A DNA stretch of 32,000 nt from Mycobacterium tuberculosis H37Rv. Lineage in GTDB: Bacteria; Actinomycetota; Actinomycetes; Mycobacteriales; Mycobacteriaceae. The translations under genes were made by a program, and so were the position numbers. The stretch covers positions 2,850,001-2,882,000 of the forward strand of contig NC_000962.3 in the NCBI RefSeq assembly GCF_000195955.2. The letters run 5' to 3'. A model generated the notes under the pieces. It worked only from the letters and a program-made list of their open reading frames with translations. It did no database searches and was not told the origin of the DNA. Positions 1,751 to 8,254 of this stretch are shown piece by piece (position 1 is the stretch's first letter; each line of letters opens with the position of its first letter).

Positions 1751-2671
1751 TTACAGGCCATCAAAAAAGTCCTCGTCGAGCCGTAAGAGTTCGACGGTCT
1801 GCACCGCCTGGACACCGACTCGATACCGCACGAGCAGCTCGGCCAGCCGAGCGCCGTCGATGAGTTCGATCCGGGCGTTGATCCGCTCAGCTTCCTCGCG
1901 GGCACCGCGGGAAAACGATGACGTGGTGATGTAGACGCCCCGGTCGCCCTGCTTGCCCAGGAGGGCGCCGGCGAACTCGTGGATCTTCGGCCGGCCAATC
2001 GTTTGGTCGACGGCGTATCGCTTGGCCTGCACGTAGATGCGGTCCAGCCCGAGCGGGTCCTGGCTGATGATTCCGTCGATGCCAGCGTCACCGGAGGCAC
2101 TCGTCCGTTCCACCGCGCCGGCTCGCCCGTAACCCATCGCCTCCAAAAGTCTGATAACCAGATCTTCAAACCCGGTGGGCGACAACGTGAGTGCCTTCTT
2201 CAGGATCTCCCCCTCGACGGCTGCCCGGTTCTCCGCAAGCGCAGCGTCGATGAGATCCTCGGGTGAGACCTGCACATCGTCCCCGGACGGTCGCTTGGCG
2301 GTCGCGTCGACTGGCTGCTTGGCTTTGGTTCGCTCACGAAAAGCGATGTACGACGGGAACTCCCGCAGCACAGCCATGTCGACGCGCTCGGGATGCGCCT
2401 TCAGGACTTGACGGCCCGTGTCCGTGACCTGGACGTGGCCCCGCGTGGGACGGTCGAGCAATCCGGCCTGCGACATGTGAGTGAGAGACCAGTGCACCCT
2501 GTCGTACATGGTCCTTTGCCGACCGCTGGGCAACATCTGCGCCCGCTCGTCGTCGGACAGACCGAACTCGTCGGACATCGCCGCGATGACGTCCTTGGCC
2601 GACTTCGCTTGTCCATCGGCAAGATACGCGAGAATCGGCCGCATCAACGTCTGGGCATCAGGGATCGTCAT
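1751..2671 (-). CDS. mrr: Mrr-type (type IV, modification-dependent) restriction endonuclease
   Basis: 306 aa. The N-terminal region MTIPDAQTLMRPILAYLADG... resembles the Mrr_N winged helix. The C-terminal PD-(D/E)xK core is GDAGIDGIISQDPLGLDRIYVQAKRY (D...Q-x-K). Confidence 0.9.
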   Translation of the reverse strand: MTIPDAQTLMRPILAYLADGQAKSAKDVIAAMSDEFGLSDDERAQMLPSGRQRTMYDRVHWSLTHMSQAGLLDRPTRGHVQVTDTGRQVLKAHPERVDMAVLREFPSYIAFRERTKAKQPVDATAKRPSGDDVQVSPEDLIDAALAENRAAVEGEILKKALTLSPTGFEDLVIRLLEAMGYGRAGAVERTSASGDAGIDGIISQDPLGLDRIYVQAKRYAVDQTIGRPKIHEFAGALLGKQGDRGVYITTSSFSRGAREEAERINARIELIDGARLAELLVRYRVGVQAVQTVELLRLDEDFFDGL

Positions 2672-3011
2672 GGGGAGCCATTATCCAGCTGGCTTGTCAG
2701 CCCTCCGAACCGGCCAAGTTGGGTAAGTCCATCCGGGGCTCCGTGTTCTGACAGGCCCGCTGCAGGCGTCGCATCTTCCTCATCTGCCCCACGTGTACCC
2801 GGTCCCGCCGACCTAAAAGGTCGGCATATCCCTGCCATGCCGGGACGCGTGAGGCGGGTGAGACACAAGGGAACGTGCACCTCGCGCACCGGGTCGCCAG
2901 CAGCCGCGACACGCCGTCGTCCAGTGCCACACCGAATGCGGTGTCGGGCTCGGCGTCAAACGCTGCCGATCGGCCTTGCCTCGTCAGGCCGCCGACAGCA
3001 CCGCCCTGGGC

Positions 3012-3278
3012 TCACGGTCCGCGGCTCCGCCGGGATCCGACCGGCGGCGGCTCAACCCCCTCGATCGTCTTGAGCCGGTCGACAGACCGATCGAAAGACG
3101 GCCACCGGATCGTCCCGGCAGGGGCGAGGAAGTCCGGCGTCCGAGCAAGCACCGGGCGATTGCCCTCAACGCGGAAGACAACCCGATCACCCGATTGCAG
3201 GCCGAGCGCGTCGCGCACCGCTTTCGGAACCGTCACCTGCCCCTTCGACGTGACGATGGGTTCGTCGGAGTGCCTGCT
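3012..3278 (-). pseudogene. AbrB/SpoVT(MazE/VapB)-fold antitoxin-like frame with no usable start codon; antisense to the 5' part of the long + ORF
   Basis: Track ORF 3012-3236 begins (GTG) [41 protein letters not shown]. Hand translation upstream in the same frame adds ...IVTSKGQ, giving the canonical SKGQVT(I/V)PKAVRD swapped-hairpin motif. That extension is closed by TGA at 3281-3279 with no ATG/GTG/TTG in between. Confidence 0.45.
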
Positions 3279-4266
3279 TCACCGTTGCCGTACGCCGCCC
3301 GTACCCTCACACTCTGTGGAGCTGCTCGTCGCCGCCAACCCCGCTGAAGACTCGCGCCTGCCCTACCTGATCCGGCTGCCGGTGGGCGCGGGACTGGTCT
3401 TCGCCACCTCAGACGTGTGGCCGCGCACCAAGGCGCTGTATTGCCATCGCCTCGACATCGCCGACTGGCCCGCCGACCCCGTCGTCGTCGACCGGGTCGA
3501 GCTACGCAGCTGCAGCCGCCGGGGCGCGGCCATCGACGTCGTCGCCGCCCGCGCGCGGGAGAACCGATCGCAACTGGTGCACACCATGGCGCGCGGCCGC
3601 CAGGTGGTGTTCTGGCAGAGCCCCAAAACGCGCAAACAGTCGCGGCCGGGCGTGCGCACCCCCACCGCCCGCGCCGCCGGCATCCCCGAGCTGCACATCG
3701 TCGTCGACGCCCACGAACGCTACCCCTACACCTTTGCCGACAAACCCGCGAAGACGACGCGGGAAGCCCTGCCCTGCGGCGACTACGGCCTGAAAGTGGC
3801 CGGCCAACTCGTGGCGGCCGTCGAGCGTAAAGCGTTGGCGGACCTTACTTCTGGCGTGCTGAACGGCAACCTGAAATACCAACTGACCGAACTGGCCGCG
3901 CTGCCACGGGCCGCCGTGGTGGTCGAGGACCGCTACTCGGAGATCTTCGCGCACTCCTTCGCCCGCCCGACGGCGATCGCCGATGGGCTGGCCGAATTGC
4001 AGATCGGCTTTCCCAACGTGCCGATCGTGTTCTGCCAAACCCGCAAGCTCGCCCAGGAATACACCTACCGCTATCTAGCCGCCGCCCTCACCTGGTTCGT
4101 CGACGATGCCGACGCCACCACGGTTTTCGAGCCGGCTGCCGCCGAGCCCGAGCCCAGCAGCGCCGAGCTGCGCGCGTGGGCCAAAAGCGTCGGCCTGCCG
4201 GTGTCCGACCGGGGGCGCCTGCGCCCGCAGATCCTGCAGGCCTGGCGAGCCGCCCATCCCCGGTGA
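3256..4266 (+). CDS. ERCC4 (XPF/Mus81-like) nuclease domain protein with C-terminal Lsr2-like DNA-binding tail (Rv2529-like)
   Basis: The longest ORF is 2875-4266 (463 aa). Its first ~127 codons are Ser/Arg/Pro/Thr-rich shadow sequence of the minus-strand AbrB-like frame, so I place the start at ATG 3256 (alternative GTG 3316). Motifs: [26 protein letters not shown] (the ERCC4 signature). C-terminus: [33 protein letters not shown] (Lsr2 C-domain-like with an R-G-R hook). Confidence 0.75.
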
Positions 4267-4686
4267 CTACAACACCTCGACGAGGCCTGCGGATGCTGAA
4301 TCGGCCAGTGCGGCATCGAATGTGACCAACCGGCCCCCGTAGCGCGCGGCCAAGGCGATGAGATGGCAGTCGGTGACCCGACGGTGGTTGGACACCGCAT
4401 CGCGATCGCCGGCGCTCCCAACGATCAGTGGCACATCGTCAGGCCAAAACGTGTGCCCGGCAAGAGAAGTCATCGCCGCCAACTGAGCGATCGCGATAGC
4501 CGGCGTGGTCGACACCTGCATCACACTGCGATTGCTTGAAATTCGGACATACCCTGCCTCGGTGATCGGCGTGGTGGCCCACCCATTCGAGGAGAACTGC
4601 GTGAACCATCGCTGCGCGGCCGCATGGTGAACGTGATTCGGCCAGCCCAGCGCGATCAGCACATTGACATCGAGCAGTGCCGTCAC
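4267..4686 (-). CDS. vapC39: PIN-domain toxin (VapC39)
   Basis: 139 aa, MTALLDVNVLIAL..., a classic PIN N-terminus with C-terminal LVTFD. There is a 4-nt overlap with the upstream antitoxin. Its stop abuts the stop of the convergent + gene with 0 nt between them. Confidence 0.9.
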   Translation of the reverse strand: MTALLDVNVLIALGWPNHVHHAAAQRWFTQFSSNGWATTPITEAGYVRISSNRSVMQVSTTPAIAIAQLAAMTSLAGHTFWPDDVPLIVGSAGDRDAVSNHRRVTDCHLIALAARYGGRLVTFDAALADSASAGLVEVL

Positions 4687-4907
4687 ACGTCGTCCTCGAG
4701 CGCGCGGACGACATCCTCGGAAGTCACCGTCGGCGCATCCGGCGGAACATCAAAAACCGGAAATCCGTCAACCTCGACAATCCCAACCGGACGGAGCGAC
4801 CTACGCGCCAACTCAGAAATTACCGCGCCGACTGACTTGCCCTCCGACCGCGCGATGCTACGAGCATCTTCTAGAACATCATCATCAATCTGCAACGTGG
4901 TGCGCAT
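4683..4907 (-). CDS. vapB39: VapB antitoxin (VapB39)
   Basis: 74 aa, MRTTLQIDDDVLEDARSIARSEGKSVGAVISELARRSL... It overlaps vapC39 by 4 nt. Confidence 0.85.
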   Translation of the reverse strand: MRTTLQIDDDVLEDARSIARSEGKSVGAVISELARRSLRPVGIVEVDGFPVFDVPPDAPTVTSEDVVRALEDDV

Positions 4908-4937: not shown

Positions 4938-7781
4938 TCACGCGTCTTCGGCGACCCCCTGCAGCACACTGTCGCCGTTGACGGTGCCATTCAAAGCCGA
5001 AGCGTCCCGCGGTACCTCGAAGGCCGGCAGCGCGGCACCTACCGTGGCGACGGCGTTGCGCGCGGCCTCCATCCGGGCCAATGCCGCCTGGGTGAACACC
5101 GACAACCCCAGGTCGGGGTTGTATCCGTGGATCTCTTTGACGTCGAGCTGGGCAAGAAAGTAGATGATCTCCTTGGAAACCAGTTGACCCGGCACCAGTA
5201 CCGGGAAGCCGGGCGGGTAGGGCACCACGAACGTGGTGGATACCAGAGTCTTGCCCTCAGCCAGCCGGCGCCCGGCCAAGCCGATCTGCACGTACTCACG
5301 GTCGGCCTCTTCGTAGCCGGCGTAGAAAGCCGACCGCATGTCACCGAAAGAGCTGGCGTCGTCGGGGCGGAAGGCAAGGTCGAACTCGCTGAAATCTGGT
5401 AGATGCGGCAGATCCTGCGTGATCTCCTCGACGTGGCGTCGGTGTAGAGCAAGGTCGGCCCCGCTGGCCGCCTTCTGGCTGCGGTCCAGATCGATCGCCA
5501 CCCGACGCAACACATCGAGCAGATAGTGCACGCTCGACCAGGTGACGCCGATCGTGAAGATCAGCAACACGCTGTTGATAGACGTTTTGTTGATCTGGAT
5601 GCCGAATCGCTCCATCAGGATCTTCTCGCGGAAGTCGTACCCGTTCATCCCGGTCGCCCCGATAAACAGGGTGAGCCGCGTCGGATCGAGCACGAATTGA
5701 TCGGACCGCCAGGCTTCGTTCCAATCGGCCAGAGCCCCCTGCCTGACCTGACGGTACGAGCTGACCGTCGAGGACCGAAAGGCATCGGGAACCAGGTCGG
5801 ACTCGTCAAGGATGCGGAACCACTTGCTGATCAGCCGGTCTTTGCGGACGCGATGGCGGAACACCAGCGCCATGTTGTAAACATGGCGGACCAGCTCGAA
5901 CCCTTCGATGTCAACCTGTCGGCGCGCCAAGTCCAACGAGGCGAGAAGTTGCTGGTTGGGCGAGGTCGAGGTGTGGGTCAAGAATGCCTCACCGAACGCG
6001 TCCCGGGTGAGCGCTTTGAAATCCTGGTCGCGCACGTGGATCATCGATGCCTGCCGTAGCGCGGACAGCGACTTGTGAGTCGAATGCGTCGCATACACTC
6101 GGACCCGAGCGCGGTTGGGGTCTGGCAACAGCCGGTGATCAACCCACTCGGAGCGGTCCACTCCGTCCATCGACGCACACCAATTCCGGTATTCCTCAGC
6201 GTATTCCGCAGTGGACAACATCTGCTCGAGTCGCTCGGCAGCAATCATCGCGGTCCGCTGCCGGGCCCAGGGCACCGCCGTCGCAAACGCATACCACGCC
6301 TCGTCCCACAAAAAGCAGATGTCCGGTTTGATCGCTAGCACCTCCTCCATCACCCGGCGCGGGTTGTACACCACGCCGTCAAACGTGCAGTTGGTGAGCA
6401 ACAGCATGCGCACCCGGTGCAGCTGTCCGGCGGCCTCGAGGTCCAGCAGCGCCTGCTTGATGGTGCGCAACGGCACGGCACCATAAATCGCGTACTGCGG
6501 CAGCGGATATGCGTCGAGGTACATCGGGTACGCGCCGGCAAGTACCAGGCCGTAGTGGTGCGACTTGTGGCAATTGCGGTCGATGAGCACGATGTCGCCG
6601 GGGCGGGTCAGGGCCTGCACGACGATCTTGTTGGCGGTCGATGTTCCGTTGGTGACGAAGTAGGTCTGGTTGGCGTTCCAGGTCACCGCGGCTTTGTCCA
6701 TCGCCGTCTTGATGTTGCCATGCGGGTCCAGCAGCGAGTCCAGTCCACCAGAGGTTGTCGAGGTCTCGGCCATGAAGATGTTGCGGCCGTAGAACTCGCC
6801 CATGTCGTGCAGTGACTTGGAGTTGAAGATGCTGGCGCCGCGCGCGACGGGAAGGGCATGAAATTGGCCGACCGGCGCCGCCGCATAGGCCCGCAGCGCA
6901 TCGAAAAACGGTGTGGCATAACGGTTTCGTAAACCCGCGAGCACCGTGCTGTGCAGGTCGGTGACGTCGTTGAGCCGGTAGAAGGTGCGGTCGTAGACGT
7001 CGGGCTCGTCCTGGGTCTCGGCGGCGATCGACTCGTCGGTGAGCAGATAGAGGTCGATGTGGGGCCGCAACTCACGGATCCACTCGGCGCATTCCACCCA
7101 GTCGTGGGTCTCGTTTGCCACCGCTTCGTCGCCATCGGTGCCCAGCAGCGTGGTCATCAGCGGCACCCGGTCGCGGGACCGCAGCGGCAGGTCGTGACGG
7201 ATGATCGCCGCCTGAATCTCGCCATTCAGCGCCACCGCGGTGATGGCATCTTCGATGCTGGCCACCACGAGCAACTCGAACTGCACCTCGTCGGCCGGAT
7301 TGCGCAACTGCCGCAGGCACTCGGCCAAGCTGTCCGGAGCCGTCGCCGGGGAGTCGTCGGCGAGCAGCACGGTGTAGAACTGCTGCTGTTTGGCCTGCGC
7401 TACCAGCTCCTGCTCCGCCAGTGACGCGGAGGTGTCGAACAGCGCTGTGCGGTCGCCGTATTCGGACAGCAGTCGTACGGCCAACGACACTTCCTCGGTA
7501 AGCCGCACCGTGGAATGACTATCCAGATGAGCGCGGAAAGTCGCCAGATTCTGTGCCCCCGGATACAGCCAGTACCGCTCATAGGCGCCGATGCGGTCCA
7601 TCAGCCGCTTCGCCCGAGCCACGTCGTGTGTGGTGTCGAGCCCGGCGAGGTCGACCTCCGCCAGGTGACGACACGCGTCATCGAGCAGGTTCCAGGTGTC
7701 CAGGCGGGTGTAGGACGGGTTGGCCACCGCGGCCAGCGCGGAGACATGCAGCCGTCGCGGGCGGACGCTGTTTGGGTTCAT
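4938..7781 (-). CDS. adi: PLP-dependent Orn/Lys/Arg decarboxylase family protein, 947 aa, with long N-terminal extension
   Basis: The ORF track gives 964 aa. I start at ATG 7781 (MNPNSVRPRRL...). PLP-lysine motif YATHSTHKSLSAL. CheY-like wing segment FYTVLLADD...LLVVASIEDAITAV, preceded by ~135 residues I do not recognise. Confidence 0.9.
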   Translation of the reverse strand: MNPNSVRPRRLHVSALAAVANPSYTRLDTWNLLDDACRHLAEVDLAGLDTTHDVARAKRLMDRIGAYERYWLYPGAQNLATFRAHLDSHSTVRLTEEVSLAVRLLSEYGDRTALFDTSASLAEQELVAQAKQQQFYTVLLADDSPATAPDSLAECLRQLRNPADEVQFELLVVASIEDAITAVALNGEIQAAIIRHDLPLRSRDRVPLMTTLLGTDGDEAVANETHDWVECAEWIRELRPHIDLYLLTDESIAAETQDEPDVYDRTFYRLNDVTDLHSTVLAGLRNRYATPFFDALRAYAAAPVGQFHALPVARGASIFNSKSLHDMGEFYGRNIFMAETSTTSGGLDSLLDPHGNIKTAMDKAAVTWNANQTYFVTNGTSTANKIVVQALTRPGDIVLIDRNCHKSHHYGLVLAGAYPMYLDAYPLPQYAIYGAVPLRTIKQALLDLEAAGQLHRVRMLLLTNCTFDGVVYNPRRVMEEVLAIKPDICFLWDEAWYAFATAVPWARQRTAMIAAERLEQMLSTAEYAEEYRNWCASMDGVDRSEWVDHRLLPDPNRARVRVYATHSTHKSLSALRQASMIHVRDQDFKALTRDAFGEAFLTHTSTSPNQQLLASLDLARRQVDIEGFELVRHVYNMALVFRHRVRKDRLISKWFRILDESDLVPDAFRSSTVSSYRQVRQGALADWNEAWRSDQFVLDPTRLTLFIGATGMNGYDFREKILMERFGIQINKTSINSVLLIFTIGVTWSSVHYLLDVLRRVAIDLDRSQKAASGADLALHRRHVEEITQDLPHLPDFSEFDLAFRPDDASSFGDMRSAFYAGYEEADREYVQIGLAGRRLAEGKTLVSTTFVVPYPPGFPVLVPGQLVSKEIIYFLAQLDVKEIHGYNPDLGLSVFTQAALARMEAARNAVATVGAALPAFEVPRDASALNGTVNGDSVLQGVAEDA

Positions 7782-7852
7782 GTCGTCACCTGTTCTCTGG
7801 TGCGGGTAGCGCCGTAGAGTGCAACCAGGCAATTATCGCGCGCAGGACCGGG

Positions 7853-8254
7853 TCAGTCAGCTAAGTCGTCGCTGTCCGCGATCCGCCGATTAGCCCGATT
7901 CCCGGAGTTGTCCACCCAGCGCAGCACCGGCAGCTGCGAAAGCTCCCGGCGGCGTGCCGGCAGATCGGTGACGTCACCCAGCGAGCGCACCACGGCCTGC
8001 GTCAGGCCCATGATGGCGGCCATCACCGGTAGCAGCGGCTGCAACGGCTTTGCCGCCGTGCGAACAGTGCTGATGCGGCGTGCCAAGATCAGGCGTTCGA
8101 TCGCGTGATACAGCCAGGCGCCGACACCCAGCGCGTAGATCGACATTGCCGAGGCGACAATGGTCAGCCCGTAGGCGGCGCACACCACGGCACCGAGCAC
8201 CACCGTCGCAGCCAGGACGGCCGCGACCACGACGCGCAGCTCGAGCCGGGTCAT
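7853..8254 (-). CDS. small integral membrane protein (Rv2532c-like)
   Basis: 133 aa from ATG 8254, which overlaps the nusB stop (ATGA). The N-terminal hydrophobic stretch is LRVVVAAVLAATVVLGAVVCAAYGLTIVASAMSIYALGVGAWLY. The longer 193-aa track version is Gly/Arg-rich shadow sequence over nusB. Confidence 0.6.
   Translation of the reverse strand: MTRLELRVVVAAVLAATVVLGAVVCAAYGLTIVASAMSIYALGVGAWLYHAIERLILARRISTVRTAAKPLQPLLPVMAAIMGLTQAVVRSLGDVTDLPARRRELSQLPVLRWVDNSGNRANRRIADSDDLAD

Follow-up and report, generated by a model that had tools for sequence, protein, structure and literature searches.

Rv2529 of Mycobacterium tuberculosis joins an ERCC4-type nuclease domain to an Lsr2-type DNA-binding tail: a bacterial branch of the XPF/Hef family with a possible role in conflict with AT-rich DNA

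Nucleases of the XPF/Mus81/Hef type are usually regarded as archaeal and eukaryotic enzymes, and they act in dimeric form, on DNA that is branched or partly unwound. Lsr2 inserts the R-G-R of its DNA-binding domain into the minor groove of AT-rich duplex, and it needs an N-terminal oligomerisation domain for bridging and silencing. We have analysed a gene of Mycobacterium tuberculosis H37Rv, Rv2529, whose product joins a nuclease domain of the first kind to a DNA-binding domain of the second. It lies on the forward strand of a stretch of 32,000 nucleotides (NC_000962.3, positions 2,850,001 to 2,882,000; hereafter the window, in which all positions are given), where its coding sequence runs from 3316 to 4266 and encodes 316 amino acids plus the stop. 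The best explanation that we can offer is that Rv2529 is an autonomous single-gene unit encoding a metal-dependent XPF/Hef-type endonuclease, with the role of an accessory conflict gene directed against AT-rich incoming or mobile DNA. We put this forward tentatively, with a probability of roughly 0.4, and the role is its least certain part. A survey of the PD-(D/E)XK superfamily published in 2012 gave the range of the ERCC4 family as "Archaea & Eukaryota" (PMC3424549). The architecture of ERCC4 with Lsr2_DNA-bd has already been catalogued in public databases but the family appears to be unstudied, no publication on the two domains together having been found in the searched literature.

The closest described relatives of the nuclease half are archaeal XPF and Hef (Pyrococcus furiosus Hef, 1J22-1J25; Aeropyrum pernix XPF, 2BGW/2BHN), with which Rv2529 shares the ERCC4 fold, the catalytic signature (D..E, GD and ERK) and the placing of a DNA-binding module after the nuclease and a linker. 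The differences lie at both ends, since the archaeal proteins have a C-terminal (HhH)2 domain where Rv2529 has a Lsr2-type domain of 35 residues, and the N-terminus of Rv2529 is a beta domain of about 100 residues where Hef has a helicase and the short XPF proteins have nothing. Unlike archaeal XPF and Hef, the Rv2529 family is bacterial and plasmid-borne, sequence identity is only 18-25%, and no clamp-binding motif was spotted by eye in Rv2529. Lsr2 itself (2KNG, 6QKP, 6QKQ) shares its DNA-binding domain and predicted two-helix topology with the tail of Rv2529, but it has an oligomerisation domain, in the stead of which Rv2529 carries the nuclease. Phages hold weak matches to either half, among ERCC4-type nucleases (PHROG 3490, E 2.5e-5) and Lsr2-like proteins (PHROG 1223 and 6269, E 3e-7), but these are separate, small proteins, and neither the fusion nor the N-domain was found in phage genomes, IMG/VR or BFVD. 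Finally, the type IV enzyme Mrr is, like Rv2529, the product of one gene that combines a DNA reader with a nuclease of the PD-(D/E)XK superfamily and has no methylase partner, and the two may work alike, by recognising something that marks DNA as foreign. Mrr, however, targets modified DNA whereas the reader of Rv2529 would be one for AT-rich DNA, the fold subfamily differs, and Rv2529 lacks a PADLOC match in its core.

Profile, motif and fold all place Rv2529 in the ERCC4 superfamily. Its nuclease domain occupies residues 125-271 of the 316-residue protein, to which all residue numbers refer (3688..4128, forward strand), and is recognised by Pfam PF02732 (ERCC4) at E 1.9e-15, with 57.4 bits against a cut-off of 24 and profile positions 1-139 of 140 covered. 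NCBIfam gives a partial match of Rv2529 to the Hef nuclease, and the best sequence match of the ERCC4 part among structures in the Protein Data Bank (PDB) is the nuclease domain of Pyrococcus Hef, 1j22. The same structure heads the Foldseek matches of the nuclease domain in the PDB (E 5.6e-8, TM score 0.79 by target, root-mean-square deviation 2.7 Å), followed by A. pernix XPF, human XPF and MUS81; the AlphaFold2 (AF2) model of the 316-residue protein has a mean pLDDT (AF2's per-residue confidence score) of 90.8. The catalytic codons lie at 3703-3720 (VDAHER), 3778-3786 (GDY), 3823-3843 (ERKALAD) and 3916-3930 (VVVED), all on the forward strand, and D131, E134, G155, D156, E170, R171, K172 and E204 are invariant in a set of 53 sequences that reaches down to 35% identity, with D176 kept in at least 90% of the set. 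Because the catalytic residues are invariant in these 53 sequences, the enzyme is very probably active. A Pfam scan of Rv2529 at E up to 0.1 returned no HhH family. An earlier reading of the window made from its letters alone (the sequence-only reading) had recognised ERCC4 elements in this gene, and profile, fold match and invariant residues agree in bearing it out.

The Lsr2-type domain at the other end takes up residues 280-314 (4153..4257), as two helices and a loop in which the R-G-R forms residues 299-301 (4210-4218). Pfam PF23359 (Lsr2_DNA-bd) matches the whole open reading frame (ORF) at E 4.7e-8 and the last 38 residues alone at E 8.6e-10 (38.2 bits, the cut-off being 26.9). The PDB sequence matches of the tail are the Lsr2 DNA-binding domains 6qkq, 6qkp and 2kng, and the alignment to 6qkq and 2kng is free of gaps, with 14 identities that include the R-G-R, the figure at which the sequence-only reading had arrived. 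AF2 places the helices at 282-291 and 304-313, with a pLDDT of about 95, and the 34 Lsr2-tailed members of the 53-sequence set carry either RGR (30) or RGK (4). Both domain calls behind the idea of a nuclease tethered to a reader of AT-rich DNA were hence correct, the profile and structure searches having confirmed each; the preference of the tail for AT-rich DNA is something we infer from conservation of the domain only. Despite some database names, Rv2529 is not an orthologue of Lsr2, because no N-terminal oligomerisation domain was detected in it, the Lsr2-family matches in Pfam and PHROG being confined to the tail. A further match of the tail is to the PADLOC model PDLC03328 (MTase_II), over profile positions 532-569 and at E 2.4e-9. 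This model ends in an Lsr2-like segment, which suggests that the DNA-binding domain of Lsr2 is a portable module borne by several kinds of actinobacterial DNA enzymes.

The N-terminal domain (residues 1-101; 3316..3618) is predicted to be all-beta with eight strands and is specific to the family, with no Pfam model of its own. Modelled alone it reaches a pLDDT of 92.9, and P36, G70, R79 and W100 are invariant. The sequence-only reading had found nothing that it resembled, and at the level of sequence this holds, as Pfam, NCBIfam and PDB profiles gave at most weak, scattered matches. In Foldseek, the only PDB match below E 0.01 is 3p43 (E 6e-3, TM scores 0.64/0.59), an archaeal LigD-type 3'-phosphoesterase (PE), and it is by way of 3P43 alone that the domain may resemble the eight-stranded beta fold of LigD PE domains (3P43, 3N9B, 3P4H), other PE structures being absent from its top 50 matches. 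Alignment of the N-domain to four PE sequences recovered from PDB alignments gave a probability of 0.56% in hhalign, and none of 38 N-domains matched the LigD PE family in Pfam. PE has a His-His-Asp metal site, together with catalytic Arg and Tyr residues, but this triad was not found in Rv2529, where at best LPYLIR pairs locally with the LHYDFR of PE, in such a way that proline (P16) faces the histidine and leucine (L18) the aspartate; nor does the N-domain sequence hold an H-x-H-x-D-type motif. For want of a profile relation and of the metal triad we rejected membership of the LigD phosphoesterase family, and the LigD-like fold, which comes from a single Foldseek hit of a predicted model, is a lead only. 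Weak matches to the p97 N-domain, seen with the full model, were gone with the N-domain alone and were dropped.

Two linkers join the three domains. The first (residues 102-124; 3619..3687) is basic, conserved and predicted to be disordered (pLDDT 53-73), with R110 and P111 kept by 90% or more of the sequences in the most diverse sets, while K107, Q108, P116, A118-A120 and G122 do not vary at all in close relatives. The second (residues 272-279; 4129..4152) is short, flexible and of acidic and Pro-Ala character (pLDDT 64-70), and both its length and its sequence vary. A second R-G-R, at residues 93-95 (3592-3600), sits in the turn of the beta7-beta8 hairpin of the N-domain, with G94 and R95 at least 90% conserved; this motif and the conserved disordered basic segment could be extra contacts to DNA.

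The gene had been taken by the sequence-only reading to start at ATG 3256, an in-frame codon at which some gene callers also start Rv2529, but homologues and RefSeq point elsewhere. We consider GTG 3316 to be probably the true start, because the starts of homologues, the 316-residue form in RefSeq and the promoter spacing all fit it. Homologues are 313-330 residues long and their first residue aligns with GTG 3316 (MELLVAANP...); RefSeq also lists the 316-residue form, as the exact match 'ERCC4 domain-containing protein [Mycobacterium]', and the 336-residue form from ATG 3256 has its exact match in 'hypothetical protein TBMG_01444 [M. tuberculosis KZN 1435]'. Still longer forms, with starts at 2875, 2941, 3070, 3160 or 3250, were rejected because a decayed antitoxin gene of AbrB/MazE type runs there on the reverse strand; the ORF extended from 2875 is antisense to it and therefore an artefact.

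For the promoter, 84 distinct upstream regions of homologous loci were aligned by start codon. In 76 of them the A-N3-T core of the actinobacterial -10 element starts 11-13 nt ahead of that codon; elsewhere between -20 and -7 no offset shows it in more than 2. In M. tuberculosis the corresponding -10-like hexamer is TACCCT (3302..3307), 8 nt before GTG 3316, and the stretch homologous to M. pseudokansasii DNA starts at 3287, slightly 5' of this hexamer, with different genes further upstream. Given the fixed spacing of the -10 element, Rv2529 has its own promoter and is probably transcribed from it as a leaderless or near-leaderless mRNA. This element came from the comparative alignment, a scan for E. 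coli-type promoters and terminators having given no result. We also looked for signals of DNA damage regulation. None of 89 upstream regions of homologous loci contains a LexA box (GAAC-N4-GTTC), and the RecA-independent promoter motif occurs in only five of these loci, always on the opposite strand, so that regulation of the family by DNA damage was rejected.

The family to which Rv2529 belongs is large. A word-indexed protein search returned more than 4,800 relatives at 90% clustering, and in an exhaustive search of 50%-identity representatives the count was 2,042 with the E limit set at 1e-3 and 247 with it at 1e-30. The database already records the architecture of ERCC4 with Lsr2_DNA-bd, in precomputed form, for practically every full-length protein among the top matches, under the names "ERCC4 domain-containing protein" or, misleadingly, "Lsr2". 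What is common to the family is the N-domain with ERCC4; the tail varies. Some members have none (270-283 residues), and others, from bins labelled Bacillota, Betaproteobacteria and Trueperaceae, have a winged-helix tail, which in one case passes the HTH_DeoR and MarR_2 cut-offs of Pfam and in the others is concordant but sub-threshold. Because other members carry a winged-helix tail or no tail, the Lsr2 tail is, to judge from these sequences, the form that a DNA-binding module open to exchange takes in actinobacteria. One variant of 450 residues (P0139, from a cluster that includes an Acidimicrobiia bin) differs over its C-terminal 157 residues, where GIY...YVGKA-like motifs can be seen by eye; a second nuclease of GIY-YIG type there was left tentative, the Pfam match (E 0.012) being below the cut-off.

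A pattern-limited scan of one genome per species, over 185,579 species, confirmed relatives at 428 places in Actinomycetes, Acidimicrobiia and Thermoleophilia, and this number suggests a patchy distribution. Mean identity is 63-72% between classes and 67% within Mycobacteriales (minimum 55%), as measured over 80 loci that are the best matches to mycobacterial sequences and so a sample biased to close relatives; such cross-class identity fits horizontal spread or very strong constraint. Twenty-three actinobacterial plasmids carry the gene, the pMUM plasmids and one of 21 kb among them. No match was found in 50,697 phage records (INPHARED) or in 2.9 million IMG/VR contigs, and structures in BFVD match the ERCC4 domain only; a phage origin or anti-defence role was rejected on these grounds. 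Copies were also met in a bin of Candidatus Sericytochromatia (L034, 8001-8834), 74% identical to the M. tuberculosis protein, and in one of Gemmatimonadaceae (L059, 1112-2089), 60% identical, and these are either mis-binned actinobacterial contigs or cases of transfer between phyla.

We examined the neighbours of the gene around 74 loci, using crude gene calls of our own, based on GC content at third codon positions, followed by clustering; this set is likewise biased to close relatives and stands without matched controls. The most frequent neighbour family is shared by 9 of the 74 loci and is the decarboxylase of a syntenic block of slow-growing mycobacteria; a conserved partner gene was rejected on this basis. 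Nor was there linkage of the gene to any repair gene or repair operon in the compared loci. The 124 immediate neighbours belong to 138 Pfam families, of which PIN (8), phage integrase (4), SDR (3) and TetR (3) are the commonest, again without a control set for comparison; PemK, MazE and two transposase families also occur among them. The copy in M. adipatum adjoins a Wadjet system, Fic and a PIN toxin-antitoxin (TA) pair. On the 21-kb plasmid of M. chimaera the gene has a serine recombinase on one side and ParA on the other, within the maintenance region. On pMUM002 and a M. avium plasmid it adjoins the insertion sequence (IS) IS21, and on megaplasmids of Mycolicibacterium and Rhodococcus IS110, IS256 or HipA; integrase genes, too, stand next to plasmid copies.

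Several further observations concern mobile elements. The query matches at three places on pMYCCH.01 of M. chubuense (NC_018022.1), one of which was viewed and adjoins IS110, and at two places on the M. intracellulare plasmid NZ_CP012886.2. In several loci a Tn554-like trio, made up of two tyrosine recombinases and a DUF6262 protein, stands within four genes of the gene, on either side (for example at 4951-7914 of locus L032). In one database protein of 516 residues (P0320) a Tn3 transposase domain is fused with the ERCC4-Lsr2 protein. Transposons may carry the gene as cargo.

We rank a conflict role first because the gene is solitary, self-promoted, plasmid-borne, patchy in distribution, often found by TA, IS or integrase genes, and without signals of a damage regulon. 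Solitary state, plasmid copies, TA, IS and integrase flanks and cross-class similarity are traits common in conflict genes, and the type II methyltransferase model that matches the tail is a precedent for an Lsr2 domain on a defence-type DNA enzyme. As to mechanism, Rv2529 would act as a homodimer, as other ERCC4 nucleases do, cutting branched or partly unwound DNA rather than plain duplex. Its two Lsr2-type tails would fasten the dimer to AT-rich duplex by way of the minor groove, thereby standing in for the (HhH)2 DNA-binding domain of archaeal XPF, and the dimer would then cut a junction, flap or bubble near the anchored duplex. The N-terminal barrel and the basic linker might aid recognition of a strand end or junction, or might gate the active site. 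In this way AT-rich incoming or mobile DNA would be cut during replication, recombination or transfer, and a cover of polymerised Lsr2 would keep resident AT-rich DNA from being cut, which is a conjecture of our own. A bolder version of the same proposal, a "xenogeneic restriction" mirroring xenogeneic silencing, would have a mobile, self-promoted XPF-type nuclease find low-GC DNA through its Lsr2 reader and cut it at replication, transfer or recombination structures, while Lsr2 polymers protect host islands, a winged-helix reader serves in other phyla, and the barrel, with its LigD-like fold and no active site, senses a strand end or junction; in this full form we regard it as doubtful.

A number of points weigh against the conflict role and need to be considered together. 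Many loci are ordinary metabolic or housekeeping regions: in Rhodococcus the gene lies with a kinase and an Rv0495c-like region, in Agromyces between an amylase gene and smc, and in Nocardioides among genes for sugar and purine catabolism. Adjacency to mrr is confined to the M. tuberculosis lineage, only a handful of the 124 immediate neighbours match PADLOC defence models, with no model matched by more than one neighbour, and the core of Rv2529 itself (N-domain and ERCC4) has no match in PADLOC-DB v2 at E up to 0.1. The tail-less and winged-helix variants show that reading of AT-rich DNA is not intrinsic to the family, and the cross-class similarity may be inflated by the choice of loci. The ERCC4 enzymes characterised to date are, to our knowledge, all repair or recombination nucleases. 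Moreover, a solitary nuclease with no immunity partner would have to spare the AT-rich islands of its host, for which the proposed shielding by Lsr2 is conjectural. Lastly, the searched literature mentions Rv2529 in tables only and holds no functional study of it. A defence role is possible and is a live hypothesis. The sequence-only reading had gone further in seeing here a component of a defence island. The family does show mobile and TA-flanked traits, but the context does not generalise, with few PADLOC neighbours and many housekeeping loci.

Nearly as likely as the conflict role, if likewise short of probable, is that Rv2529 is an accessory nuclease of repair or recombination, the bacterial counterpart of the archaeal short XPF or Hef, which would trim 3' flaps, forks or D-loops, for instance when single strands are annealed, ends joined or forks restarted. 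The tail of Lsr2 type would then provide the grip on duplex that (HhH)2 gives in XPF, and the LigD-like barrel would sense the 3' end or junction. It speaks for this that the closest structures (Hef, XPF and MUS81) are all repair nucleases, that the order of nuclease, linker and DNA-binding domain mirrors archaeal XPF, and that the sole PDB fold match of the N-domain is an enzyme of the end-healing LigD family, although the latter likeness is a single Foldseek hit with no profile support and with non-catalytic residues opposite the metal ligands. Sequence conservation is very strong, many loci are not defence islands, and the position of the gene beside vapBC39 and adi is kept among slow-growing mycobacteria, which suggests stable inheritance there. 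On the other hand, there is neither an SOS box nor linkage to repair genes, the distribution appears patchy (428 places among 185,579 species), and copies occur on small plasmids and next to IS elements. The sequence-only reading had held that this does not look like a repair enzyme, and had named embedding in conserved repair operons as a finding that would refute it. No such operon surrounds the gene, and the LexA box is missing from all 89 upstream regions.

We think it unlikely that the gene chiefly serves the plasmids and transposons that carry it, whether by resolving their branched replication or transfer intermediates or by attacking competing elements. Such a service would agree with the 23 actinobacterial plasmids and the copy in the maintenance region of the 21-kb M. 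chimaera plasmid, with the multiple matches on the M. chubuense plasmid (three) and one M. intracellulare plasmid (two), with the adjoining IS21, IS110 and IS256 and the nearby Tn554-like trios, with the database protein fused to a Tn3 transposase domain, and with a self-contained promoter that travels with the gene. However, most of the copies found are chromosomal and have no adjacent mobility gene, the phage records and IMG/VR contigs searched contain none, no conserved relaxase, replication protein or resolvase partner was found, and the M. tuberculosis copy lies within a stable syntenic block. A non-catalytic, nucleoid-associated paralogue of Lsr2 that only binds DNA is very improbable, because the catalytic residues are all invariant over the whole family, and only the last 35 or so residues are Lsr2-like, with no Lsr2-family match beyond them, even though some NCBI and UniRef records say 'Lsr2' or 'histone-like nucleoid-structuring protein Lsr2' and ERCC4-like domains can be inactive binders or scaffolds (ERCC1, EME1, FAAP24 and, in bacteria, LlaI.R1).

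In M. tuberculosis the gene order around Rv2529 is vapBC, mrr, Rv2529, vapCB, an Orn/Lys/Arg decarboxylase gene, nusB and efp (the last two identified by eye). This order fits the Rv2526-Rv2534c region, where mrr is Rv2528c and nusB is Rv2533c, and identifies the gene as Rv2529; a published listing has Rv2527, mrr, Rv2529 and nusB side by side. The sequence-only reading had made much of the place of the gene downstream of a type IV restriction gene and between VapBC modules. The Mrr-type gene is real (1751-2671, reverse strand; PADLOC mREase_IV, E 1.4e-83), but it stands on the opposite strand, divergent from Rv2529 and about 645 bp away, and the two are not operonic. When the window's Mrr was used in blastp and tblastn searches, no homologue was found within 8-10 kb in the other 91 homologous loci fetched, and linkage to mrr was rejected, the two genes adjoining in this lineage only. 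VapB/PIN pairs do flank mrr and Rv2529, at 1091-1716 and 4267-4907, but this is a property of the region, since five VapBC-type modules (a VapB or RHH antitoxin with a PIN toxin) lie in the 32 kb, the others at 17756-18567, 18540-19237 and 19727-20364; TA flanks are expected at such a density and say little about Rv2529.

Between mrr and Rv2529 lies a decayed toxin-antitoxin module (2697-3262, reverse strand). Its antitoxin ORF (3012-3236, reverse strand) is of AbrB/MazE type (Pfam MazE_antitoxin, E 7e-7) and has lost its own start region. Relative to M. innocens, M. ostraviense, M. gastri and M. attenuatum, which keep an intact pair of AbrB and PIN genes in this place, about 0.4 kb has been deleted, a loss that took the greater part of the toxin gene (PIN) and the antitoxin gene's 3' end. 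Near 3032 the homology to these species stops, and mrr lies beyond. Elsewhere in the window, a tandem duplication of LppA-family lipoprotein genes occupies 16466-17421 (ORFs 16468-17127 and 17037-17786; Pfam LppA, E 1e-43 and 3e-39), with a 300-nt repeat, 92% identical and spaced by 656 nt, in the part of the window lowest in GC (0.59). At about 13000-15000 the GC content rises to 0.73-0.75, against a window average of about 0.66, and long ORFs overlap on both strands.

What this analysis shows is a large and strongly conserved bacterial branch of the ERCC4 nucleases, with a member in M. tuberculosis. If its role is in defence or in conflict between elements, then the Lsr2 read-out by which foreign equals AT-rich would be linked to destruction of DNA rather than to its silencing, and this would bear on the poor transformability of mycobacteria with low-GC DNA. 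If its role is in repair, Rv2529 would be a candidate for the flap-trimming activity of mycobacterial annealing or end-joining pathways. Under either role, the modular tail, the new N-domain and the travelling promoter are handles for experiments.

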